From the NCBI GenBank assembly GCA_964651655.1, contig CAZYVS010000005.1:1-44902 (forward strand): a stretch of DNA of 44,902 nucleotides, given 5' to 3'. This document shows, one piece after another, positions 3,878 through 39,177 of the stretch. The stretch comes from an uncultured Candidatus Saccharibacteria bacterium (GTDB lineage: Bacteria > Patescibacteriota > Minisyncoccia > Phycocordibacterales > Zambryskibacteraceae). The position numbers were made by a program, and so were the translations under genes. Below the pieces are notes generated by a model. It was not told the DNA's origin. It searched no databases and saw nothing but the letters and a program-made list of their open reading frames with translations. The first letter of the stretch is position 1. Each line of letters starts with the position of its first letter.

Positions 3878-4660
3878 ATGAGTAAAAAACTTACAATTCT
3901 TATCGGGATCGCAGTTGTTCTGTTTGGAGGGGTATTATTGCTCAAAACAGGCAATATCGGCACAACAGCACTCTGGAACTTGAGTGACGGTGGCAAATGG
4001 ATGCTTCCTCTTGTTAGTGTGGCCGCGCTTATTGACAGCATCAACCCGTGCGCGTTCGGCATTCTTCTCTTAACCATCGCATTTCTGCTTTCTCTTCAAA
4101 AAACGAGAGCGAGCATATTAAAAATCGGAAGCGTGTATATTCTCGGACTGGTAATGGTCTACCTTCTCATTGGGCTGGGAATTTTACAAGCGCTTCACCT
4201 GTTCAATACGCCGCACTTCATGGCAAAAGTTGGGGCGCTACTTTTGATCGTGCTTGGTGGCATAAATCTAATCAACGAATTCTTTCCATCATTCTCGATT
4301 AAACTTCGTATTCCGCGAGCGGCGCACACCAAAATGGCATCGCTTATGAACAAGGCCTCGCTTCCGGCGGTATTCCTATTGGGCGCGCTGGTAGGTCTCT
4401 GCGAGTTTCCTTGCACCGGAGGACCGTATCTTATGGTGCTTGGACTTCTGCATGACCAAGGAACATACTTGACCGGTGTCGGCTACCTTCTGCTCTATAA
4501 TCTAATCTTCATCCTGCCGCTCATCGTAATTCTTCTAATCGCAAGCGACAACGCGCTTCTTGTAAAAGTGCAAGCCTGGAAAAAATCGGAAACAAATAAC
4601 ATGAGACGTTGGGGTGGTGCCGCCATGATCGTCCTTGGCTTTCTCATATTCTTTATCTAA
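3878..4660 (+). CDS. CcdA/DsbD-like transmembrane thiol-exchange protein
   Basis: DSINPCAF and CEFPCTGGPY membrane cysteines, about 7 TM segments. Confidence 0.82.
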   Translation: MSKKLTILIGIAVVLFGGVLLLKTGNIGTTALWNLSDGGKWMLPLVSVAALIDSINPCAFGILLLTIAFLLSLQKTRASILKIGSVYILGLVMVYLLIGLGILQALHLFNTPHFMAKVGALLLIVLGGINLINEFFPSFSIKLRIPRAAHTKMASLMNKASLPAVFLLGALVGLCEFPCTGGPYLMVLGLLHDQGTYLTGVGYLLLYNLIFILPLIVILLIASDNALLVKVQAWKKSETNNMRRWGGAAMIVLGFLIFFI

Positions 4661-5747: not shown

Positions 5748-7754
5748 ATGAATCATAATCATCACTCCGGACACGACATGCAGAAAATGGAAGCGGATAT
5801 GCGTCGCCGGTTTTGGATTTCATTCTTGCTTTCAATCCCAATTTTTCTCTACTCTCCTGTTGGTATTAATTTTTTCGGACTTAATCTTCCTGCACCGATC
5901 CCGGTAAACTGGCTTCTTCTTATTCTCACTACCCCGATTGTCTTTTGGACCGGTTCGATTTTTATTACCGGCACCTATTATTCGCTCAAAGCACGGAAAC
6001 TTAATATGGCGGTTTTGGTTGCAACCGGAGTTTTGGCGGCGTATCTTTTCAGCGTACTTCTAACATTTATCCGTCCAGAGTCAGAAACCTTCTACGAAGC
6101 GGCGGCTCTTCTGGTTACTTTCGTATTATTCGGCCACTGGATGGAGATGAAAGCGCGCCGAGGTACGTCCGATTCCTTGCGCGCACTTTTTGATCTTGTG
6201 CCTCCCAAAGCCAATGTCATTCGCTCTGGCAAAGAGATCAGTATTCCCAGTGCGGAAATAGTTCAGGGCGACATCGTTGTGCTCCGGCCCGGCGACAAAG
6301 TGCCGGTGGATGGTGAAGTAACCATCGGCGAAACTTCCATTGACGAATCACTCGTCACAGGAGAATCTATCCCGGTTACCAAAACTGTTAGTGCAAAAGT
6401 GGTGGGAGGATCGGTAAATCTTACCGGCCTCGCACAATTTAAAGCTACGAAAGTGGGATCGGAGACGGTATTGGCACAGATCATAAAAATGGTTGAGACC
6501 GCCCAGAACTCCAAAGCTCCTGGCCAGCGCATAGCAGACAGGGCCGCCGGGTGGCTTGTTATGGTTGCCCTTGGCTCCGGTCTTGCCGCTTTCTTTAGCT
6601 GGTATTTCGGTGCTGACGCTGGTCTCTTAACCGCCCTTACCTTTGCGGTCTCAACCGTCGTCATTGCCTGTCCGGATGCCTTAGGGCTGGCCACACCTAC
6701 GGCAGTTGCTGTTGGGACCGGCATTGGCGCAAAACATAATATTCTTATTAAGGACGCGGCAACACTTGAAAACACCTCCAGACTCAATGCAATCGTGCTC
6801 GATAAGACAGGAACCCTCACGGAAGGAAAACCAAAAGTTACCGAAGTCGTTGTCCGACCCGGATACGACCACCGCGAAGTTTTATCGCTTGCGGCATCGG
6901 CTGAGCAAGGATCAAACCATCCAATTAGCGCGGCCATTCTTGAAGAAGCTCAAAAGAATGGGCTTAAAGCAAATGAGAAAGTGGAAAAATTTGAGAGCGT
7001 AGGCGGTCATGGCGTCCGCGCAGTAGTCAATGGCAAGTCGGTTGTTGTTGGTACTGAACGGCTCATGCAACAGAACAGAGTCGATCTTTTGCCGATTAAA
7101 AAAGATATTGACCGTCTGCTCAATACCGGCAATACTATCGGCATTATTGCGGTTGACGGGCAAGTGGCAGGAGCGATCGGTGTCGCAGACACAATTCGCC
7201 CCTCGGCCAAAAAATCTATGTTTGCCCTGAAGTCGCTCGGACTCGAAGTAGCAATGATCACGGGTGATCACGATCAAGTTGCAAAGGCAGTCTCAAACGA
7301 GCTTGGTATTGATCGCTACTTCGCACAGGTCTTGCCCGAAGATAAGGCTAAGTACGTCAAAAAGCTCCAAGACGAAGGCAAGTTCGTGGCTATGGTCGGC
7401 GACGGCATCAATGATGCTCCAGCGTTGGCGCAATCTGATATCGGTATTGCTATCGGCGCAGGAACAGATGTTGCTATTGAGACTGGCAATATTGTGCTTA
7501 TGAAATCAGATCCGTATGACATTGTCGCCGCGCTTCGTTTGTCGAAAGCGACGGTGGTCAAAATGAAACAAAATTTATTCTGGGCGGCTATTTATAACTT
7601 GCTGGCTATCCCGGTGGCGGCCGGAGTATTTTATAATTCGTTTGGTCTATCGCTACGTCCTGAAATTTCCGCTCTCCTTATGTCCGCCTCGTCCATTATT
7701 GTCGCCATCAATGCCGTGTCGCTTAAAAGAGTTGAGCCGAAGTTAAAAAGATAA
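5748..7754 (+). CDS. Heavy-metal (copper-type) P1B ATPase
   Basis: TGES, DKTGT, HP, GDGIND motifs; TM motifs CPD, YN, MSASS; His-rich N-terminus. Confidence 0.95.
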   Translation: MNHNHHSGHDMQKMEADMRRRFWISFLLSIPIFLYSPVGINFFGLNLPAPIPVNWLLLILTTPIVFWTGSIFITGTYYSLKARKLNMAVLVATGVLAAYLFSVLLTFIRPESETFYEAAALLVTFVLFGHWMEMKARRGTSDSLRALFDLVPPKANVIRSGKEISIPSAEIVQGDIVVLRPGDKVPVDGEVTIGETSIDESLVTGESIPVTKTVSAKVVGGSVNLTGLAQFKATKVGSETVLAQIIKMVETAQNSKAPGQRIADRAAGWLVMVALGSGLAAFFSWYFGADAGLLTALTFAVSTVVIACPDALGLATPTAVAVGTGIGAKHNILIKDAATLENTSRLNAIVLDKTGTLTEGKPKVTEVVVRPGYDHREVLSLAASAEQGSNHPISAAILEEAQKNGLKANEKVEKFESVGGHGVRAVVNGKSVVVGTERLMQQNRVDLLPIKKDIDRLLNTGNTIGIIAVDGQVAGAIGVADTIRPSAKKSMFALKSLGLEVAMITGDHDQVAKAVSNELGIDRYFAQVLPEDKAKYVKKLQDEGKFVAMVGDGINDAPALAQSDIGIAIGAGTDVAIETGNIVLMKSDPYDIVAALRLSKATVVKMKQNLFWAAIYNLLAIPVAAGVFYNSFGLSLRPEISALLMSASSIIVAINAVSLKRVEPKLKR

Positions 7755-8178: not shown

Positions 8179-8885
8179 CGACAATGATTAAGTGCATGAC
8201 GGCCGCACCAACAGAGTTTAAAGATCGCAAGGATGCCGGCAGGCAATTAGCCAAGCGGTTAAAAAGTTACGCCAAAAAAGACGTGGTGGTCTATGCTTTA
8301 CCTCGCGGCGGTGTAGTAGTGGGGGCGGAAGTAGCGCGTGCGCTTCATGCGCCGCTTGATATCCTCACTGCGAGAAAAATAGGTCACCCAGACTTCCCAG
8401 AATTTGCCATTGCTGCTGTCGGTCAAAGTGGATATGTAGTGAAAGATAAGGAGACAGCGGCATCAATCGGGGAAAACAAATTTGAGGAGTTGGTGGAAGA
8501 CGCGCAGATTGAGGCGCGCAGAAGACATGACTTATATCTCAAGGGGATTCATATCCCTGAAGTGGCGGGGAAAATAGCTATAGTTGTAGACGATGGTTTG
8601 GCCACGGGACTAACCGCACGCGCAGCATTAAGCGATCTGAAACTGCTTAAACCGAAAAAGATTATTCTTGCTGTTCCGGTAGCCCCGGACACGGCTGTTA
8701 ATACAATGACAAACGAAGTAAATGATTTTATCTGTCTTTATTCAGATCCTAATTTCGTCTCTATCAGCCCATACTACGAGGAATTCTCACAAATTTCCGA
8801 CGAAGCAGTCATAGAACTTTTACAATCAATTAATAAAAAAGAGAAACCACAGAATCTGTTACCAGTTAAAAATAATTTGTCCTGA
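8175..8885 (+). CDS. Phosphoribosyltransferase family protein
   Basis: FKDRKDAGRQLA, ALPRGG, PRPP loop VVDDGLATG; true start may be ATG 8184 or 8196. Confidence 0.9.
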   Translation: MTTMIKCMTAAPTEFKDRKDAGRQLAKRLKSYAKKDVVVYALPRGGVVVGAEVARALHAPLDILTARKIGHPDFPEFAIAAVGQSGYVVKDKETAASIGENKFEELVEDAQIEARRRHDLYLKGIHIPEVAGKIAIVVDDGLATGLTARAALSDLKLLKPKKIILAVPVAPDTAVNTMTNEVNDFICLYSDPNFVSISPYYEEFSQISDEAVIELLQSINKKEKPQNLLPVKNNLS

Positions 8886-9419
8886 ATACGCCACCAACGT
8901 AACCACAGTAATACTGCCAGCCATGAGTACAGGAGCCAACTGCTTAAACGACATGCCCACGAGAGCCAGGGCAATCATTAAGATATCATTCGGAAGAGGG
9001 GTAAACCCAATATAAATATAAACACCGATTAAGACGATGCTTAATGGCACATTTTTTATTGCGGAGACTAACCGTAAAGAAACGGGCTTGGTATTTGTAT
9101 AAAAAATTTTAATACCATATCGCACGGCAAAGAAGAAAATTGTATCACTGATAAAAATTCCCAAACCTCCTAAGAGACCGAGAAGAAACGGATTGGCGCC
9201 CCCGCTTGAAAAAGTAATCACAGAAGTAAAAAAAGACACACCGGTGACAGTTGAGAGCCCGCCAAACACCGCTAACAAAAAAGAAACAAGATACGTGTTC
9301 TCAACGCCGATATAATCCACTATCTCCTTTGGAGTAACATAGATAGAAATTAAAATAAACACCAAAAGAAAGGCGAGAAGCAATAAGATCATCCAGTGTC
9401 TTTTAAAAAAGTTTAACAT
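8859..9419 (-). CDS. VTT/DedA-like membrane protein
   Basis: Several TM segments, GLLGGLGIFISD and FTPLPNDILM motifs. Confidence 0.65.
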   Translation of the reverse strand: MLNFFKRHWMILLLLAFLLVFILISIYVTPKEIVDYIGVENTYLVSFLLAVFGGLSTVTGVSFFTSVITFSSGGANPFLLGLLGGLGIFISDTIFFFAVRYGIKIFYTNTKPVSLRLVSAIKNVPLSIVLIGVYIYIGFTPLPNDILMIALALVGMSFKQLAPVLMAGSITVVTLVAYSGQIIFNW

Positions 9420-9534
9420 ATACAGACATTTTGACAGAAAAAGACACTGATTAGTAGTTCTGCCAGATTGATTATATAATGGTAAGCAGAAGTGATCTTA
9501 GTTTCAGAGATAAAAAGGAAAGGAGGGTTTGACC

Positions 9535-10305
9535 ATGTATCTATTGTTTACATTAGGTGTCGCAATGGTCGTGGCGCAAGTGGCCATGTTTGGCACCAGC
9601 ATTTACTTACATAGAACAATGGCGCATTATGCACTGACATTACATCCAACAGCGGCTTGGATGTTCCGTTGTCTCTTGTGGATTACCACGGGACAAAAAA
9701 CACGGGAATGGGTAGCGGTGCACCGCAAACACCACACCTTTGCGGATAGAGAAGGAGACCCTCACAGTCCGCTACTTGAGGGTTTCTGGTCCATACAACT
9801 TGGCAACGTTATTCACTACGCACGAGCACTAAAGGATAAGAATATCCTGATAAAGTACGCTCCGGATATCCGGAGCGATATTTGGGACAGGTTATTCTTT
9901 GATTATAGTCTGCTCGGTGTTTCACTGGGTATCATGCTACTTTGTACGTTCTTGGGTCTAGGATGGGGATTACTGGCCGCCGGGGTTCATGCGTTCATGT
10001 ACGTCTTTGTGTTGTCGTCATCCATCAATGGACTATGCCATTACAAAGGATACAAGAACTTTTTCAACACGGCGACCAATCTTAGATTCGTGGCACTGAT
10101 TACTGCGGGTGAAGGGTTGCACAACAATCATCACGGATTCGCGCACAGTCCAAAGTTCAGTGTACGACAGAGTGAGTTTGACCCGGCGTGGCCGATAATT
10201 AAGCTTTTGAAGATGCTGGGTTTAGCCAGAAACATTAAGAAGACCAGCTCTGAACAGGGGCTGAAGTTTAGGAGGATCAGACGCTCCATGCTTCCGCGGT
10301 CATAA
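9535..10305 (+). CDS. Membrane fatty-acid (acyl-CoA delta-9 type) desaturase
   Basis: Three His boxes HRTMAH, HRKHH, HNNHH plus GDPHSP; GGAGG RBS at 9522-9526 favours ATG 9535. Confidence 0.92.
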   Translation: MYLLFTLGVAMVVAQVAMFGTSIYLHRTMAHYALTLHPTAAWMFRCLLWITTGQKTREWVAVHRKHHTFADREGDPHSPLLEGFWSIQLGNVIHYARALKDKNILIKYAPDIRSDIWDRLFFDYSLLGVSLGIMLLCTFLGLGWGLLAAGVHAFMYVFVLSSSINGLCHYKGYKNFFNTATNLRFVALITAGEGLHNNHHGFAHSPKFSVRQSEFDPAWPIIKLLKMLGLARNIKKTSSEQGLKFRRIRRSMLPRS

Positions 10306-10335
10306 GCGCATATCTGCGCTTATGACCGCTTTGCG
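10296..10335 (+). terminator. Intrinsic terminator of the desaturase gene
   Basis: Perfect 15-bp stem gcggtcataagcgca/tgcgcttatgaccgc, 4-nt loop, T-rich tail; overlaps the stop codon. Confidence 0.8.
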
Positions 10336-10435
10336 TTTTATTCACTGAAAATAATACACATTTCATCAACAAGATATCCACCGAATTATTCAAAAAATGG
10401 GTTTGACTTTTACAAATATCAGGAGAATGATTATA

Positions 10436-10563
10436 CCAGGTCAGCTTCATTGAAGAGATTCCTTAAACACACAATTAAAGGGATCTCAAACAAATTGAGT
10501 GTTATGAGCCTCAATCAGAGATAACCCAAAATAATAAAAAGTGGAATCCTCTTCTGACACGGA
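10436..10563 (+). ncRNA. Putative 6S-like rod-shaped RNA
   Basis: Closing stem 10452-10462/10543-10554, A-rich central bubble 10463-10479/10528-10542, terminal stem ggg-atctc-attgag/ctcaat-gagat-ccc; TTGACT at 10403 upstream and a terminator downstream. Confidence 0.5.
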
Positions 10564-10576
10564 GCGGACCGCGAGG

Positions 10577-10607
10577 CGAAAATCTCCTACTCGGGGATTT
10601 TCGTTTT
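10577..10607 (+). terminator. Intrinsic terminator
   Basis: cgaaaatctcc/ggggattttcg stem followed by TTTT. Confidence 0.75.
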
Positions 10608-10625
10608 GATGTTAAAATGGAAGCA

Positions 10626-11174
10626 ATGAAGAAAGTTATCGTTATTATGGTTGTGATAGTCATCGCCGCTTTTCTATATGTCGCGCGCAACAATCCTTCC
10701 GCTCCCGTAATCGAAACTTCGGCGCCGAATGAGACCGGCGCCTTTCGTCCAGATCCATCAAATGCCACATTCACATTAGACAATGAATCTATCACTCTTT
10801 CAAAAGGGAAAAATTCGAGATCGGTTGTTCCGGGAAGCGCGCTTATAGAAGAGACAAACTTGATGGACAAATTCGCCTATGGCGATATCAACGCGGACAA
10901 CAAAGAAGACACGGTCTTATTTCTAGCTCGTTACGGCGGCGGTTCTGGAATATTTGTATATCTAGCCGGCTATGTTTCCGGACCGGTAACTTATAGAGGA
11001 TCGGTGGCTATGTTTATAGGAGACAGAATCATTCCTCAATCAATTGATGTTAGCCGGGGAATCGTAACGATAAAATATTTGGATCGCCAAGCCGGCGAAG
11101 CCTTGGCGGCTGAACCAACCGTCCTAGCGTCCAAACAATTTATCTTCAAGAACGGAGAGTTTGTGGAAAGATAA
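10626..11174 (+). CDS. Membrane-anchored exported protein of unknown function
   Basis: N-terminal TM, GDINADNKEDT Ca-binding-like loop, GGGSG; start at ATG 10626, 7 nt after an extended -10 TGTTAAAAT. Confidence 0.75.
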   Translation: MKKVIVIMVVIVIAAFLYVARNNPSAPVIETSAPNETGAFRPDPSNATFTLDNESITLSKGKNSRSVVPGSALIEETNLMDKFAYGDINADNKEDTVLFLARYGGGSGIFVYLAGYVSGPVTYRGSVAMFIGDRIIPQSIDVSRGIVTIKYLDRQAGEALAAEPTVLASKQFIFKNGEFVER

Positions 11175-11197
11175 AAATTGTGCTCTAATGGCTATTT

Positions 11198-13057
11198 ATG
11201 GAAATTCGTAATATAGCTATTATCGCGCACGTTGACCACGGCAAGACTACTCTGACCGACGCCTTGATGCGCCAGACCGGAACGGCGGCCGTAGGAGTCT
11301 CAATGGATTCAAACGTCCTTGAATTGGAGCGTGGCATCACTATTTATGCCAAAAATACATCCATTTTTTATAAGGGAACCAAAATCAATATTGTAGATAC
11401 ACCCGGACATTCAGATTTCGGTTCTGAAGTGGAAAGGGTTTTGCGTTCTATAGACACGGTGCTTCTCGTCGTCGATGCTCAAGAAGGACCGATGCCGCAA
11501 ACTCGTTTCGTTTTAAAGAAATCCCTGGAGCTCGGTTTGAAACCTATTGTAGTCATAAACAAAATTGACAAACCAGCCGCTCGACCAGAGGAAGTACATG
11601 AATCCGTACTGGAACTTTTTTTAGAACTAGGCGCTAACAACGAACAAATAGATTTCCCTACCGTCTACGCCATTGGACGAGAAGGCATTGCTAAGAAAAA
11701 TCTCACGGATAAATCCAAGGATTTAACTCCTTTGCTTGATGTTATTCTTGAACATGTCTCACCGGCGAATAGTCTCACGGAAAAAGGTCAGACCTTAGGT
11801 ACAAATTCTAAAGGTCTGACCTTGAGGAGCGAGAGCTTGAGGGCCCAGCCTTTTAATCTGGCTTATGACAATTTTCTCGGACGGCTGGCCATCGCGCGAA
11901 TTTATGAGGGCGCGCTGAAAGACGGACAAAAAGTTTTTGTCAAGAAACCAAACGGAGAAACTTACACCGGAAAAATAAACAAACTCTATACTTTTGAAGG
12001 ACTCAAAAGGAAAGAGGTGGACGAGGTCGTCGCTGGGGATATTTGCATGCTTGCGGGACTATCACAAATTTATATCGGTGACACAATAACAGCAAGCGAA
12101 GATGCTTCGGCTCTGCCGGCGATATCAGTTGATGAGCCGACTATTTCTCTTAATCTCGTCGTCAATGACTCCCCTTTTGCCGGGCGCGCCGGTAAATTTG
12201 TCACCAATCGGCAAATTCGCGAGCGATTAGAGCGGGAATTGGAAGTAAATGTCGGACTTAAAATAGATTTCTCATCCGGTGAATTCATAACTGTTTATGG
12301 CCGAGGAGAATTACATCTCGCTATTCTCTTGGAAAATATGCGGCGCGAAGGATTTGAACTTCAAGTGTCTCAACCGCACGTCATTATCCGTAAGGGTAAT
12401 GATGGTGAGCTTGTCGAACCATTCGAGGAAGTAATAGTGGATGTGCCTGAACAAATGTCTGGCACTGTAATCTCAAAATTAACAGAACGCCGAGCCATTC
12501 TTCTTGATATGAGAACCGATCCCTCGACTCCGCTCGGGATAAATAATCAAACTCGCCTTACTTTGGAAGTGCCGACCCGCGGACTCTTGGGCTATCGCAA
12601 TCAATTTGTCATAGACACCAAGGGCTTAGGTATTCTCTCTTCTCGATTCACCGCGTTCAAACCCTACACCGGTGAAATGAAACATGAAAAGAGTGGTTCG
12701 ATGATCTCTATGGAGAATGGCAAGGCTCTGGCCTTCTCGCTCAACAATCTACAAGACAGGGGTGTCTTATACATAGAGCCGGCAGATGAGGTGTATGAGG
12801 GGCAAGTGATTGGTAATACTTCAAGGGGTGAAGATCTCTACGTTAATCCGACCAAAGGCAAACAACTGACCAATATGCGAGCCTCCGGTTCGGACGAAAG
12901 CATTTTCCTGACACCGGCTTATAAACTTGATATTGAGCGAGCCATGGAAATTATGAAAGATGATGAATATATAGAAATTACCCCCACGGCTGTTCGTCTG
13001 CGAAAAATCCATCTAACCCAGACTGAACGTTCAAAAGCCCAGAGAAAGAACAGCTAA
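11198..13057 (+). CDS. typA: Translational GTPase TypA/BipA
   Basis: AHVDHGKTT, ERGITI, DTPGH, NKID, GRGELHL, EPFEE, YEGQVIG, EITP motifs. Confidence 0.97.
   Translation: MEIRNIAIIAHVDHGKTTLTDALMRQTGTAAVGVSMDSNVLELERGITIYAKNTSIFYKGTKINIVDTPGHSDFGSEVERVLRSIDTVLLVVDAQEGPMPQTRFVLKKSLELGLKPIVVINKIDKPAARPEEVHESVLELFLELGANNEQIDFPTVYAIGREGIAKKNLTDKSKDLTPLLDVILEHVSPANSLTEKGQTLGTNSKGLTLRSESLRAQPFNLAYDNFLGRLAIARIYEGALKDGQKVFVKKPNGETYTGKINKLYTFEGLKRKEVDEVVAGDICMLAGLSQIYIGDTITASEDASALPAISVDEPTISLNLVVNDSPFAGRAGKFVTNRQIRERLERELEVNVGLKIDFSSGEFITVYGRGELHLAILLENMRREGFELQVSQPHVIIRKGNDGELVEPFEEVIVDVPEQMSGTVISKLTERRAILLDMRTDPSTPLGINNQTRLTLEVPTRGLLGYRNQFVIDTKGLGILSSRFTAFKPYTGEMKHEKSGSMISMENGKALAFSLNNLQDRGVLYIEPADEVYEGQVIGNTSRGEDLYVNPTKGKQLTNMRASGSDESIFLTPAYKLDIERAMEIMKDDEYIEITPTAVRLRKIHLTQTERSKAQRKNS
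11784..11823. repeat. In-frame double palindrome (family B) in typA
   Basis: aaggtcagacctt ... aaggtctgacctt, perfect 13-bp inverted repeat with self-palindromic arms. Confidence 0.8.
12519..12540. repeat. In-frame palindromic element (family A) in typA
   Basis: atccctcgactccgctcgggat, reverse-strand variant of the tspO copy, encodes PSTPLG. Confidence 0.7.
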
Positions 13058-13203
13058 CCTCTAGATTCTCTCATACGTCAATAACTCACGGTCGTGAACT
13101 TATAACGTATAGAAAAAAATAAGTAGAGTTATTCATCAGGTTGCAATTATTTAAAAATAGTGTACAACATAGCCAGGATCGTGGAATAAAAAAGGAGGAG
13201 CCA

Positions 13204-13464
13204 ATGGAAAAATCAGAGATCCAGACAAGTGTTACAGCCGTAGTTGCCGAGGTTCTTGGTGAGTCTCAAGGGGATATCGGCTTGGATTGTGATCTGGGCG
13301 ATGATCTGGGTGTAGATTCTCTCGACCTTGTCGAGATAATCATGGGACTGGAAGAAAGGTACTCTATTGTTCTCCACAATCTCGACTGGGCTTCCACGGG
13401 TAAAGTTACGGCAAGAAAAATATCGGAGGATATCTGCCGATTCATAAGGGTGCCGGTAGTGTAA
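13204..13464 (+). CDS. acpP: Acyl carrier protein
   Basis: DLGVDSLDLVEIIMGLEE phosphopantetheine site, acidic 86 aa; AGGAGG RBS upstream of ATG 13204. Confidence 0.85.
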   Translation: MEKSEIQTSVTAVVAEVLGESQGDIGLDCDLGDDLGVDSLDLVEIIMGLEERYSIVLHNLDWASTGKVTARKISEDICRFIRVPVV

Positions 13465-13502
13465 GTGGCAATCTGAAGAATGCGTGTTGGTGAGGTTGAT
13501 TG

Positions 13503-13540
13503 AGGTTCGGAGGACGCACGTTCTCCGAACCTTTTTTATT
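13503..13540 (+). terminator. Intrinsic terminator of the ACP gene
   Basis: aggttcggag/ctccgaacct stem followed by a T-tract. Confidence 0.8.
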
Positions 13541-13603
13541 TGTCTTATAAGTATTACAAGCTAAAAGCTAGAAGCAAACATCTAGAAACTGTATAATAGC
13601 GAC

Positions 13604-14371
13604 ATGGCAAAACTTGGAACCGATCCGTACAAAGGAGTTAGAGATTTCTACCCTGAAGATATGGTCATCCAGAATTATATTTTCAACGTCTGGCGTAAAA
13701 CTGCCGAAAAATTTGGATATGTTGAATACGGCGCTTCGTTACTGGAACCAACTGAAATTTATACCGAAAAATCGGGCGCGGAGATAATTAACGAACAAAC
13801 TTTTACCTTCATGGATCGGGGCGATCGATCTGTCACCCTACGTCCGGAGATAACTCCATCGCTCGCTCGCATGGTCGCCGCGCGCCGTAGAAATTTAAAA
13901 TTCCCCTTACGCTGGTACTCAATTCCAAATTTATTCCGCTACGAACGACCGCAACGCGGAAGAAAACGCGAACATTGGCAATTAAACTGCGACCTTTTGG
14001 GTATCGCCGGTATTGAAGCGGAAAAAGAAATTATTTCTCTGATCTACACAATCATGAAGGAATTTGGAGCAAAAGATGAAGATTTTGAAATAAGAATTAA
14101 TAATTCAGACATCAATAACTTTAAAGAAATTGGGTCAAACTTGGTTTTTGACCCAGAATTGGCCAGAGGACAAACCTATTACACCGGAATAGTTTTTGAA
14201 ATCTTTGATACAAATAAAGCAAACGGGCGGGCGCTGGCCGGTGGTGGAAGATATGATAATCTTCTGGAAATGTTTGAGGCCGAACCAATCCCCGCGGTTG
14301 GCTTCGGTATGGGAGATATTACTATTCGTGACTTTCTGGAAACACATGGACTGCCATTATGCGCAAAGTAG
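13604..14371 (+). CDS. hisS: Histidyl-tRNA synthetase, catalytic core only (255 aa)
   Basis: KGVRDF, LRPEITP, FRYERPQRGRKREHWQ (motif 2), LARGQTYYTG, GGGRYD, AVGFGMG (motif 3); no C-terminal anticodon-binding domain. Confidence 0.85.
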   Translation: MAKLGTDPYKGVRDFYPEDMVIQNYIFNVWRKTAEKFGYVEYGASLLEPTEIYTEKSGAEIINEQTFTFMDRGDRSVTLRPEITPSLARMVAARRRNLKFPLRWYSIPNLFRYERPQRGRKREHWQLNCDLLGIAGIEAEKEIISLIYTIMKEFGAKDEDFEIRINNSDINNFKEIGSNLVFDPELARGQTYYTGIVFEIFDTNKANGRALAGGGRYDNLLEMFEAEPIPAVGFGMGDITIRDFLETHGLPLCAK

Positions 14372-14934
14372 TCTTGGATATAGAAACAAAAAATTTTTTT
14401 CAAGATGTCGGCAAGAACGATCCGGCCCTTTTGGACATTGCTTTAGTGGCCATACACGATTCTCTAACTGACTCATATTCCTCGTTCATAGAAGAAGAGT
14501 TGCCAAAACTTTGGCCAATATTGGAGCGAGCTGATATGCTCATCGGTTTTAATTCCGATCATTTTGACATTCCGCTTCTTAATAAATATTACCCGGGCGA
14601 TTTAACAAAGATAAGAAGCCTGGATATTTTAAGGGAGATAAAAAATTCTTACGGGCGCCGAATGCGTCTCGACCAATTGGCGGACGGCACCTTGGGCAAA
14701 AATAAAACCGGCCGCGGCGACGATGCTATTAACTGGTGGAAGGCGGGCGATATAGAACAAGTGCGCGCTTATTGTTTGAATGACGTCAAACTCACCAAAG
14801 AACTCTATGACTACGCTCTCGCCAATAATTTACTAATATTTAAAGAAGGTAATGCGCTCAACAAAATTAAGTTAAATACTTCAGAATGGGAAAAATCAAA
14901 CAACCACAAACTTACCTTCTCTTTACCATTTTAA
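14359..14934 (+). CDS. RNase H-like DEDD 3'-5' exonuclease (YprB-like)
   Basis: VLDIET, GFNSDHFD, YCLNDV motifs. Confidence 0.85.
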   Translation: MRKVVLDIETKNFFQDVGKNDPALLDIALVAIHDSLTDSYSSFIEEELPKLWPILERADMLIGFNSDHFDIPLLNKYYPGDLTKIRSLDILREIKNSYGRRMRLDQLADGTLGKNKTGRGDDAINWWKAGDIEQVRAYCLNDVKLTKELYDYALANNLLIFKEGNALNKIKLNTSEWEKSNNHKLTFSLPF

Positions 14935-14971: not shown

Positions 14972-15664
14972 ATGGAACAAAATCAACAAAATACGTATGT
15001 TATTCCTTTAGCCATCGTGGTAGCCGGTGGTCTTATCGCGGCAGCCGTTTACTTTGGCGCTGGTACTGAAAGACCGAAAGCAATTACCAGTACCAACGAT
15101 CAAACTGCTGAAATTAATCTTGTGCCGGTAACAGAAAAAGATCACATTATAGGCAGTAGAAATGCCAAATTGGTAATAGTTGAATACTCGGATACCGAAT
15201 GTCCTTTTTGCAAAACTTTTCATAAGACAATGAAGGATGTCGTGCAAACATACAACGGGGAAGTGGCCTGGGTTTATAGGCACTTCCCTATCGCTCAATT
15301 GCATTCCAGGGCCATAAAAGAAGCGGAAGCAACGGAATGTGCCACCGAGCTTGGTGGCAATCAAGCATTCTGGAAATATATAGACAAAGTTTTTGAAACC
15401 ACTAATTCCAACAACTCTCTCGATCCTAATGAATTACCACGAATAGCAACGGCTATAGGGCTCGACAGTGCCGCCTTCAACACTTGTCTCTCAAGCGGCA
15501 AATATACCGAGTCTATAACTAAAAGCGTAGAAGAAGCAGTTAAGGCCGGAGCGCTTGGCACGCCTTATTCTGTTATCGTGTCGCAAGATGGACAAAAAGT
15601 ATTGATAAATGGAGCTGAACCGGTTGCGATGGTGAAGGCCAAGATTGATGCGTTACTCAAGTAG
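14972..15664 (+). CDS. DsbA-family thioredoxin-fold protein, membrane anchored
   Basis: EYSDTECPFC active site, YRHFP, cis-Pro GTP, N-terminal TM. Confidence 0.92.
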   Translation: MEQNQQNTYVIPLAIVVAGGLIAAAVYFGAGTERPKAITSTNDQTAEINLVPVTEKDHIIGSRNAKLVIVEYSDTECPFCKTFHKTMKDVVQTYNGEVAWVYRHFPIAQLHSRAIKEAEATECATELGGNQAFWKYIDKVFETTNSNNSLDPNELPRIATAIGLDSAAFNTCLSSGKYTESITKSVEEAVKAGALGTPYSVIVSQDGQKVLINGAEPVAMVKAKIDALLK

Positions 15665-37233: not shown

Positions 37234-37998
37234 TTATAGATATTCTAGCAGACGATCATAGTTAATAAAATCTAAAAGTTCGTATCCATACTGGATGGTG
37301 AGGCCGAAATTGTCAGTTGATAAAAGAATACCGAGAATAATGAGAAATATACCACCGACAATAGATACTCCTTTGAGATACTTTGAGATTTTGTCGATAT
37401 AAACAGTTGCGCGTGAGAACGCGAAAGCAATCACCAGAAACGGAATGGCAAGACCGAATGAGAATACGGTAAGCATTAGTCCGCCCTGAAGCGCGGTGCC
37501 ACTCGTTCCGGCAAGAAGAAGTATCGAACCGAGAATGGGCCCAACGCATGGCGTCCAGCCAAGCGCGAATGTGCCGCCGATAAAGAGCGAGCTAGAGGGC
37601 TTGCCGAGCGTAAGCCACTTCGGGATGGGAATTCGTTTATCAGTTTGGAAAAACGAGAGCTTGAAGAAGCCGAGCATAAAAAGACCGAAGAGAATGACTA
37701 AGACGCCGCCAATGCGCGCAAGCCAAATGCGATACGGCGCGAGCGCCGTACCGACAAATCCTGCCAGTACGCCAAATATTATAAAGACGAACGAAAAACC
37801 GATGATAAAGGCAAGGCCGTTTAAAAAAATCTTTCGGCGGGCAATCCTTGCCGTTGCGGGATTTTTAAGCGCTTCTTGATCTACTCCGCTGATAAAACCC
37901 AAATAGGCAGGTACAAGCGGCAGAGTACATGGCGCAAGAAACGTAAGCAGTCCCGCAAAGAACGAAGCGACTATGAATCCGATATTTAGTTCAATCAT
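37234..37998 (-). CDS. ccdA: CcdA-family thiol-disulfide membrane transporter
   Basis: FLAPCTLPLVPAY and GWTPCVGPIL. Confidence 0.92.
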   Translation of the reverse strand: MIELNIGFIVASFFAGLLTFLAPCTLPLVPAYLGFISGVDQEALKNPATARIARRKIFLNGLAFIIGFSFVFIIFGVLAGFVGTALAPYRIWLARIGGVLVILFGLFMLGFFKLSFFQTDKRIPIPKWLTLGKPSSSLFIGGTFALGWTPCVGPILGSILLLAGTSGTALQGGLMLTVFSFGLAIPFLVIAFAFSRATVYIDKISKYLKGVSIVGGIFLIILGILLSTDNFGLTIQYGYELLDFINYDRLLEYL

Positions 37999-38561
37999 AG
38001 TGATGTTTCGTTAGTTTCTACTTGTCTCGAGCCTTGTCGAGAGATAATTTTATTGACATGCTCTCGCATCTCTTCTAATTCCATTGGACCCCGTTTGTGT
38101 ATGACGATATCTCCGGCACTATTTACAAAAATGGTTTCCGGCATAGAAAAACCGCCAATTGATTTATAAAAGGAATCCGACGAATCAAGAAGAAAGAGCA
38201 TGTCGTTTGAGATGCCGAGCTCATCGGTATATCCCCTTGCCTTATCAAGCGGTTCTTGCCGATCAATTGCAATAACCGTTATATCGTCACCAAACTCTTT
38301 TTGAAGCTCTGCAAAATCAGGCAACTCTTCGCGACAAAACGGACACCATACCGCCCAGCTGTTTATCACAAGCGGCTTTCCTCGAAATTCCGAGAGAGAA
38401 ACATTGTTGCCTTGGTAACCCATAAGCGAAATAGAAGCGAATGTATCAAAATCACTCGCACTTGATTGCGGTTTCTCTCCCCGGTCTCTCATAACAAGGA
38501 AAACTCCCCCGAGAACTAAAAGTATTACGATGCCAATAAAGAGAGTAGAATTTGTTTGCAT
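37995..38561 (-). CDS. TlpA-family disulfide reductase, membrane anchored
   Basis: NSWAVWCPFCREELP, MPET cis-Pro; ATG 38561 chosen to avoid overlap with the upstream gene. Confidence 0.92.
   Translation of the reverse strand: MQTNSTLFIGIVILLVLGGVFLVMRDRGEKPQSSASDFDTFASISLMGYQGNNVSLSEFRGKPLVINSWAVWCPFCREELPDFAELQKEFGDDITVIAIDRQEPLDKARGYTDELGISNDMLFLLDSSDSFYKSIGGFSMPETIFVNSAGDIVIHKRGPMELEEMREHVNKIISRQGSRQVETNETSL
38021..38043. repeat. In-frame palindromic element (family A) in the tlpA tail
   Basis: cttgtctcgagccttgtcgagag, encodes SRQGSRQ. Confidence 0.7.
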
Positions 38562-38565
38562 ATAT

Positions 38566-39177
38566 TTATATGCCACGCACTTTTTCAGGTCCGCGATTGT
38601 CATATCTTTTAATAAAATCACTGATACGATTTTCGTTCACGACACTATTTTCTATATCAAACGTATCAACTCGGCCCCACGCGACGAGGGCGATATCCCT
38701 CTCATTTTCTGTGCGTGGTGACACAACTACGTATTGTCCGGCAAAAGATTCAAGCACTTTCTTTGCCTCATCGCTTATATCGGAGTGATATGCAATCCAA
38801 ATGTCACCATGCTCCAGGTTGTGAAGCACCTGCTCATCGGGTAATGGCTCATTATAGTATCCGCCACGAGCGGGTGAACCATAATGCCAACCGGAGGATG
38901 GCGGGTTTGAATTGTATTCCGGATGCGAAGCGCCGTCTGCAATATGATCGCGACCTTGTATTTCGTATGCAACGCTAAAATCTTCACCGTCCGGTCCTGT
39001 CGTCTGGGCAAGCAAAAAGATCCCGTACCCTACAGCGACCAGAATAAGAATCCAAAGAGTGTAGCGGGTGATGGATTTTTGTACTTTAGCCCGTCCTGCC
39101 TGCGTGCGTTCTTTCTCTTTCGCCACTTCGCGTTCCTGTTTCTTTTGTTCGTAGTTATTTTTTGTTTCGTTTTTCAT
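38566..39177 (-). CDS. DUF3105 domain protein
   Basis: GRDH...YNSNPPSSGWHY, LHNLEHGDIWIAY, VAWG. Confidence 0.88.
   Translation of the reverse strand: MKNETKNNYEQKKQEREVAKEKERTQAGRAKVQKSITRYTLWILILVAVGYGIFLLAQTTGPDGEDFSVAYEIQGRDHIADGASHPEYNSNPPSSGWHYGSPARGGYYNEPLPDEQVLHNLEHGDIWIAYHSDISDEAKKVLESFAGQYVVVSPRTENERDIALVAWGRVDTFDIENSVVNENRISDFIKRYDNRGPEKVRGI

Follow-up and report, generated by a model that had tools for sequence, protein, structure and literature searches.

A membrane fatty-acid desaturase and an orphan acyl carrier protein in a Zambryskibacteria-like genome in which no lipid synthesis was recognised

Complete lipid synthesis is missing in bacteria of the Candidate Phyla Radiation (CPR), which probably obtain their lipids from other organisms (PMC7242380). 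What is the use, in such a cell, of a fatty-acid desaturase gene and a gene for an acyl carrier protein (ACP) lying 2.9 kb apart? The question is raised by positions 9535 to 13464 of the window, the whole stretch of 44,902 nucleotides analysed here, which is contig C5 of genome G000 (591,908 bp in 20 contigs, 94% complete). G000 belongs to a small, host-dependent groundwater bacterium of the CPR that is Candidatus Zambryskibacteria-like. Among named records, Candidatus Zambryskibacteria bacterium RIFOXYD2_FULL_43_10 (locus L009, genome G008) comes closest to it, and the genomes of its genus measure 0.4–0.6 Mb. A preliminary description, made from the window sequence, had assigned the DNA to the CPR, and the 592-kb genome and its relatives uphold this. 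It had further suggested that the two genes form a module, which loads and desaturates scavenged acyl chains, or that they were recently acquired. The answer we consider probable is a different one: the desaturase most likely edits preformed, scavenged membrane lipids and the ACP is separate, so that the region holds two independent accessory genes and no module. The desaturase is an ordinary, known type of enzyme, as the ACP is an ordinary kind of carrier. Unusual, and the interesting part, is the genomic setting, with the desaturase as sole lipid enzyme, no lipid synthesis or known electron donor found, and an orphan mobile ACP.

The desaturase and the lipid genes of the genome

The desaturase gene consists of the following elements.

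9420–9534, plus strand: 5′ region of the desaturase gene with GGAGG (direct sequence reading)
9535–10305, plus strand: SCD1/DesA-type membrane fatty-acid desaturase of the conserved-domain class delta9-FADS-like, 256 aa (motifs, profiles, model, dN/dS)
10296–10339, plus strand: intrinsic terminator of the desaturase gene (15-bp stem and T-rich tail)

The open reading frame (ORF; 9529/9535–10305) starts with the ATG at 9535, which is preceded at a distance of 8 nt by the Shine-Dalgarno sequence GGAGG (9522–9526). At its 3′ end, a terminator hairpin of 15 pairs (10296–10329) overlaps the stop codon and is followed by the T-rich tail. The protein displays three histidine boxes, HRTMAH (residues 26–31, HX4H), HRKHH (63–67, HX2HH) and HNNHH (196–200, HX2HH), and scores 54.4 bits against Pfam PF00487 (gathering cut-off 29.7), in agreement with the intact three-box desaturase of the preliminary description. 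Alignment to mouse SCD1 revealed an additional pair, N165-x3-H169, corresponding to the VNSAAH ligand pair in TM4 of that enzyme, as well as the SCD1 signature GEGxHNxHH. All di-metal ligands of SCD1, nine histidines and one asparagine, align with residues of the desaturase, giving ten di-iron ligands (H26, H31, H63, H66, H67, N165, H169, H196, H199 and H200). Mammalian SCD1 (PDB 4YMK, 6WF2, 4ZYO) was the only protein of solved structure that was matched, with a sequence E value of 7e-9 at approximately 21% identity. The fold of an AF2 model of moderate quality (pLDDT 68, pTM 0.67) likewise matched SCD1 chains only (prob 1.00, TM 0.59–0.64).

The only curated NCBIfam match was the DesA family (NF049918), with 207 bits over profile positions 10–245 of 385. 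Judged by this profile, the protein is a short relative of DesA and not a DesA equivalog. More than 7,000 homologues were retrieved in a protein search, and the close ones are labelled delta-9 desaturase throughout, by annotation and not by experiment.

Besides the desaturase and the ACP gene, no lipid gene was found. Searching G000 by tblastn with E. coli PlsX, FabH, FabD, FabF, FabZ, FabI, AccA, AcpS, PlsC, PlsY, Aas, LplT, CdsA and LpxA/D yielded no match; with FabG and AcpP included in the set, only one short-chain dehydrogenase/reductase (SDR) and the ACP itself were matched. The FabG-like SDR (C4:36160–36936) was rejected as a remnant of type II fatty-acid synthesis (FAS II) because it lies within a nucleotide-sugar/glycosyltransferase (sugar-modification) cluster. 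Whole-genome Pfam searches of G000 were negative for PF01648 (phosphopantetheinyl transferase, PPTase), PF01553 (PlsC-type acyltransferase), PF00501 (AMP-binding), PF02660 (PlsY), PF01148 (CdsA) and PF01066 (CDP-alcohol transferase), while control genomes were positive in each of them. A CPR-tailored hidden Markov model of AcpS, trained on the E. coli protein and two CPR counterparts, was run without filters on every G000 ORF of 60 aa or more (3,016 in all) and gave a best E of 0.4. Of the ACP-dependent partners FabD/H/F/Z/I, PlsX, LpxA/D and AasS, none was found in the genome. As these lipid-gene searches were negative, the desaturase is, to judge from sequence, the only recognisable lipid-metabolic enzyme of G000. 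The preliminary description had taken the lineage to be devoid of FAS II, which the tblastn and Pfam results bear out for this genome. The acpS/sfp, acyl-ACP synthetase and fab/pls genes and the ferredoxin or cytochrome b5 donor that it had proposed to look for were not found in G000.

Concerning electron donors, no ORF with a 4Fe-4S, 2Fe-2S, rubredoxin or cytochrome b5 motif and no flavodoxin (PF00258) was found in G000. The only candidate redox proteins are two flavoproteins, one TrxB-like (C1:104044–104991, with a CASC motif) and one MerA-like (C1:53972–55495). Genome-wide, no ORF with the thioredoxin motif WCGPC was found; the only thioredoxin-fold CxxC proteins seen are DsbA-like (window 14972–15664) and TlpA-like (window 37998–38636). 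The MerA-like protein, a pyridine-nucleotide disulfide oxidoreductase, has a Cys-Cys pair at its C terminus. Together with a heavy-metal P-type ATPase (window 5748–7754) it makes up a metal-resistance set, which is unexpected in a genome of 0.59 Mb.

An old desaturase in one sub-clade of the genus

The history of the desaturase was read from its position between three neighbours.

8859–9419, minus strand: orf186, divergent upstream gene for a multi-pass membrane protein (sub-threshold full-length VTT/DedA match)
10617–11174, plus strand: orf185, conserved membrane-anchored protein, downstream edge of the desaturase site (synteny)
11198–13057, plus strand: typA/bipA, housekeeping translational GTPase between desaturase and ACP (TIGR01394, 788 bits, over cut-off)

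The comparison covered 37 genomes of the genus, G000 and 36 others. A desaturase match was present in ten of the 36, five of which carry the syntenic DesA-type form. The order orf186-desaturase-orf185-typA is shared by six genomes (G000, G008, G017, G027, G024 and G004), and the five syntenic desaturases are 83, 69, 59, 57 and 53% identical to the G000 copy. In the close relatives G018 and G001 the site is empty, with orf186 directly beside orf185, and the missing desaturase is therefore best read as a loss. Sequence divergence was determined against L030, which like L029 is a related metagenome contig used for comparison of the ACP/desaturase locus. The synonymous divergence (dS) of the desaturase was 0.82, compared with 1.11 for orf185, 1.0 for typA and 1.25 for the gene of a histidyl-tRNA synthetase (HisRS)-like protein further downstream. 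Synteny and a dS like that of the flanks demonstrate that the desaturase is an old resident, which was inherited vertically with occasional losses in one sub-clade of the Zambryskibacteria-like genus. Contamination or mis-binning was rejected since the gene sits between genus-conserved genes in six genomes. Recent import was rejected by dS and synteny, despite a GC content at third codon positions about 1.5 standard deviations over the genome mean.

An old gene may still have lost its function. The desaturase could be an inactive or decaying relic, left without a donor in an anaerobe, and the failure to find ferredoxin, flavodoxin, rubredoxin or cytochrome b5 would fit such a fate, as would the losses in G018 and G001. 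However, the dN/dS of 0.12 against L030, reached over a dS of 0.82, indicates purifying selection. Moreover, none of the ten metal ligands varies among the eight homologues extracted from the genus, which go down to 35% identity, and the gene has a strong ribosome binding site (RBS) and a terminator of its own. We consider decay very unlikely.

In a maximum-likelihood tree, the desaturases of G000, G008, G017, G024 and G004 and the proteins P0001–P0005 formed one clade (100/98) nested among homologues of approximately 244 aa. At least two of these homologues sit on large non-CPR contigs (4.09 Mb and 295 kb). The SerC gene neighbouring one of the two has its best named matches in Vicinamibacterales (67–68% identity), and among the carriers of the closest homologues outside the CPR, one looks like a member of Acidobacteriota/Vicinamibacterales. 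The desaturase probably originated from a single old transfer out of a large-genome bacterium. Two points speak against this history: the syntenic G027 desaturase falls outside the clade, beside the long-branch G009, and the tree was midpoint-rooted, which leaves the direction of the old transfer inferred only.

Beyond the genus, a PF00487 gene was present in 20 of 201 evenly drawn Patescibacteria genomes (approx. 10%). Counted otherwise, carriers made up 13 of 179 high-quality genomes and 17 of 170 genera. The PF00487 desaturase is a recurrent trait in Patescibacteria. Literature searches on CPR, Patescibacteria, Parcubacteria and Saccharibacteria brought up nothing about desaturases of this kind.

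Among the neighbours, orf186 matches PF09335 (VTT/DedA) with 17.9 bits and its four orthologues with 18–23 bits, all sub-threshold, over approximately positions 5–122 of the 123 in the profile. Some VTT/DedA proteins have been associated with the flipping of lipids or of polyprenyl phosphate. Genomes that lack the desaturase keep orf186 too. No family match was obtained for orf185 in Pfam or NCBIfam profile searches; it always adjoins typA in the genus, and the pair is present in 29 other genus genomes. The desaturase-orf185 spacer (10306–10616, 311 bp) can still be aligned with relatives at approximately 80% nucleotide identity, a level that their coding flanks do not exceed. An Rfam scan of positions 8800–14500 gave no match.

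The orphan ACP and its mobile cassette

The ACP gene and the elements around it are listed below.

13204–13464, plus strand: orphan AcpP-derived acyl carrier protein (profiles, nearest structures)
13502–13543, plus strand: intrinsic terminator of the ACP cassette (hairpin and T-run)
13191–13547, plus strand: ACP cassette of RBS, coding sequence and terminator, 357 bp (nucleotide alignment to relatives)
13604–14371, plus strand: HisRS-like catalytic core, downstream edge of the ACP insertion site (profile searches, synteny)
13073–13109, no strand assigned: imperfect palindrome of 37–38 nt, solo copy between typA and ACP (repeat search, ATACGTnAATAACTCACGGTCGTGAACTTATAACGTA)

The ACP ORF encodes 86 aa with a pI of 4.2, and a GGAGG (13194–13198) lies 5 nt before its ATG. 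The motif D38-S39-L40, with the Ser39 codon at 13318–13320, is followed by a predicted helix (residues 40–53), and the PF00550 score of 37.1 bits exceeds the cut-off of 20.8; the ACP with intact DSL serine reported earlier was thus recovered. Its score stays under every NCBIfam AcpP cut-off, however, with 50.5 against 71 bits at best (NF002148) and 45.2 against 70.45 bits for TIGR00517. The nearest solved structures are AcpPs of FAS II, led by B. subtilis ACP with 34 bits. A structure model of the protein itself reached a pLDDT of 57, too low to justify a fold search. Like AcpP of E. coli and B. subtilis (PF00550, TIGR00517), the protein exhibits the DSLD-helix II motif, the acidic pI and the helix pattern. 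Unlike AcpP, it is encoded on a mobile cassette, no AcpS/Sfp, Fab or Pls partner was found, and its C-terminal half is atypical and diverged, with LHNLDWASTGKVT instead of the acidic helix III.

The gap between desaturase and ACP amounts to 2,899 bp and contains orf185 and typA, matching the 2.9 kb given by the preliminary description. Both genes do carry the strong GGAGG that it had noted in contrast to most neighbours, and genome-wide a full GGAGG precedes the start codon in at most 58 of the 518 crudely called genes of G000. Its assignment of a terminator to each gene was likewise borne out, since the 15-pair hairpin of the desaturase has a counterpart of 14 pairs (13502–13533) behind the ACP gene, both with T-runs. 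Monocistronic transcription, claimed for both, is supported for the desaturase by its divergent upstream neighbour and own terminator; for the ACP it is only plausible, because no terminator follows typA.

Comparison with relatives set the ACP apart from its surroundings. The cassette is 90.8% identical in nucleotide sequence to those of L029 and L030, whereas the flanks are 78–82% identical, and the dS of the ACP gene was 0.17 versus 0.8–1.8 for its neighbours on these contigs. With an omega of 0.25, the ACP is under purifying selection. Only two of the 37 genus genomes encode it, G000 and G018, the latter being without the desaturase. In a search of 5.8 billion clustered proteins only two ACP relatives passed (91% and 67% identity), and an exhaustive profile search returned mostly tandem-ACP megasynthases besides about five stand-alone full-length clusters with the odd C-terminal motif. 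In RIFOXYD2_FULL_43_10 (L009) the cassette is missing and typA abuts the HisRS-like gene. The contigs with the 91% relative carry typA, ACP, a Y1 transposase, a small ORF and the HisRS-like gene in this order. The transposase (212 aa, IS200/IS605- or RAYT-type) is located at 3993–4631 in L029, 5400–6038 in L030 and 530–1168 in L031/L032, and the ORF that accompanies it between ACP and HisRS-like gene in the closest relatives codes for 111–115 aa. The typA-hisS spacer looks like an insertion hot spot. In contrast, the 67% relative and the homologues of G052 and G041 reside among unrelated housekeeping genes in different contexts.

These data demonstrate that the ACP is an AcpP-derived orphan on a 0.36-kb cassette, which recently moved between related lineages into the spacer between typA and the HisRS-like gene. 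The earlier alternative of recently acquired genes therefore fails for the desaturase, an old gene in a syntenic position, and is in a sense right for the ACP cassette with its dS of 0.17. Transfer of acpP into Patescibacteria has been reported from an analysis of inter-phylum transfer with MetaCHIP (PMC12455944). The present ACP resembles that acpP in being a stand-alone gene that was transferred into a lineage devoid of FAS II; it differs in that the movement seen here is recent and among related Zambryskibacteria, with no donor outside the CPR identified.

The different histories bear on the proposed module, in which the ACP and the desaturase would act as a minimal lipid-remodelling unit, with the ACP receiving scavenged fatty acids for desaturation or further transfer. 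In its favour, the two genes are undamaged, lie close together and have a strong RBS each. The metagenome contig L030 carries them in the same arrangement, which counts for the module and against two independent genes. However, no PPTase, acyl-ACP synthetase, acyltransferase or AMP-binding enzyme that could load the ACP was found. Among the 36 other genus genomes the two genes do not overlap, ten having a desaturase and one, G018, the ACP. Their dS values differ approximately five-fold (0.82 and 0.17). Furthermore, enzymes of the SCD/DesA type act on acyl-CoA or phospholipid, not on acyl-ACP; acyl-ACP desaturases are a soluble family unrelated to this type. With neither a PPTase nor an acyl-ACP synthetase found, and with two genes that do not co-occur across the genus and differ in history, the module is hardly credible. 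The preliminary description had itself named the lack of a PPTase together with unrelated origins as grounds for giving it up. There is no evidence that the ACP serves the desaturase. The other part of the earlier proposal, remodelling of scavenged lipids, remains reasonable for the desaturase alone, which is intact and selectively maintained.

The ACP might instead be a working holo-carrier. Its PPTase would then be encoded in the 6% of the genome that the assembly does not cover or belong to an unrecognised type, and the carrier would serve an unrecognised acyl- or aminoacyl-transfer; in one version it would be charged by the HisRS-like core, by analogy with amino acid:carrier-protein ligases, which derive from class II synthetases. 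In favour of a working carrier, no ACP relative deviates in the DSL serine or helix II, the omega of 0.25 indicates constraint, and the ACP lies directly upstream of the anticodon-domain-less HisRS-like gene in three lineages. On the other hand, PF01648 gave no match in G000, G018, G041 and G052, the four genomes of the relative set with an ACP match. The HisRS-like gene, which encodes the only HisRS of G000, also occurs in genomes that have no ACP; further relatives of the ACP stand in unrelated contexts. We regard a working holo-carrier as unlikely. Charging by the HisRS-like core was rejected as the principal explanation, given that this protein is the sole HisRS, that it is kept without ACP in L009/G008 and that other ACPs are located elsewhere. 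The marks of an amino acid:carrier-protein ligase pair were not seen in G000: there is no dedicated aminoacyl-tRNA synthetase paralogue beside the housekeeping HisRS, and no PPTase was found.

In the 255 aa of the HisRS-like protein the GGGRYD and motif-3 regions are present, while an anticodon-binding domain is absent. Its score against TIGR00442 (hisS; cut-off 286.75) is 245.6 bits. Counterparts of its gene are located at 9544–10311 in L009 and 5258–6022 in L029. The 3′ end of the gene overlaps the conserved gene of a 191-aa RNase-H-fold 3′-5′ exonuclease (14359–14934), and the pair is conserved in the genus. In G018 the typA-hisS spacer holds a different ORF of 158 aa. The palindrome ATACGTnAATAACTCACGGTCGTGAACTTATAACGTA upstream of the ACP gene recurs in three further intergenic copies (C2:27659–27686, C9:2162–2200 and C1:44427–44463), compared with no match in 100 shuffles; it was rejected as part of the ACP cassette because it is not aligned in the cassettes of L029 and L030.

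Probable editing of scavenged lipids

Lipids with esterified acyl chains would be taken up whole from the host or the environment. Since no gene to make, activate or transfer acyl chains was found in G000, such esterified, scavenged chains would be the only available substrate. The desaturase would use O2 to place a cis double bond, predicted to be probably delta-9, in the chains of these lipids within the cell's own membrane, and in this way a cell that is unable to choose its fatty acids may adjust its membrane fluidity under oxygen. An acyl-lipid substrate, as in P. aeruginosa DesA, is most likely, a prediction drawn from the failure to find acyl-activating enzymes in G000.

In P. aeruginosa, DesA introduces double bonds into acyl chains that are part of membrane phospholipids; the substrate of DesB and SCD1 is acyl-CoA (PMC10634369). 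The present enzyme has in common with DesA, the phospholipid delta-9 desaturase of NF049918, the histidine boxes, the nature of a membrane protein and the best curated match (207 bits); chains already in phospholipids, on which DesA acts, are the only kind of substrate that G000 can offer. It differs from DesA in length, with 256 aa against a profile of 385 positions, and in its genome, in which no fatty-acid or phospholipid synthesis and no candidate electron donor was identified. SCD1 depends on acyl-CoA as substrate and on cytochrome b5; the searches of G000 found no cytochrome b5 and no acyl-CoA synthetase. A third comparison is offered by Des of B. subtilis, a delta-5 acyl-lipid desaturase that modifies existing phospholipids in homeoviscous adaptation. 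Ferredoxin or flavodoxins reportedly donate electrons to Des (Chazarreta-Cifre et al. 2011). Like Des, the desaturase is a membrane PF00487 enzyme; unlike it, it is predicted to have another regiospecificity and belongs to another sub-family, the donors of Des were not found, and Des was absent among the search matches.

Several points weigh against lipid editing by an independent desaturase. The enzyme needs O2, and most descriptions portray CPR bacteria as fermenters with an anaerobic life. Of the recognised electron donors of membrane desaturases, none was found in G000. The match of 207 bits is under the 400-bit DesA equivalog cut-off, and approximately 140 C-terminal profile positions are missing. 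Whether the substrate is a phospholipid, lysolipid or glycolipid, and where the double bond is placed, is predicted only and not readable from sequence. As the assembly is 94% complete in 20 contigs, a PPTase, ferredoxin or acyltransferase could lie in the missing part, and the invariant DSL serine of the ACP relatives hints at phosphopantetheinylation by an enzyme that escaped the searches.

The low DesA score and the missing C-terminal part would also suit an enzyme of desaturase fold that acts elsewhere, on lipids of the host membrane at the attachment site, on lysolipids, on a sphingoid or other hydrocarbon chain, or as a hydroxylase. The PF00487 superfamily spans hydroxylases and desaturases of many substrates, and lysolipids were reported to be enriched in CPR (PMC7242380). 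Against such a function, the only curated family match is of the DesA type, the sole neighbours in structure and sequence are SCD1, including the N-x3-H and GEGxHNxHH signatures, and close homologues bear the delta-9 label throughout, although by annotation only. Taken together, another substrate or reaction seems distinctly improbable, and editing of scavenged membrane lipids by a DesA-like enzyme stays the preferred explanation.

A more far-reaching form of this explanation is tentative and, in our view, rather doubtful. According to it, the desaturase is the only lipid-metabolic enzyme here, and perhaps in about one in ten Patescibacteria, and edits stolen lipids in situ with electrons from a donor outside the ferredoxin/flavodoxin/cytochrome b5 set, for example the TrxB-like or the MerA-like flavoprotein. 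If true, this would be a case of 'lipid editing without lipid synthesis', marking an oxygen-exposed lifestyle.

The orphan ACP without a PPTase raises the smaller question of which role such a carrier plays in a cell that has no ACP-dependent enzyme. The desaturase concerns the biology of the CPR more generally. How bacteria that take their lipids from other cells control the properties of their membranes is a question which a maintained desaturase makes testable, and its presence would mark part of a supposedly anaerobic group as oxygen-exposed.

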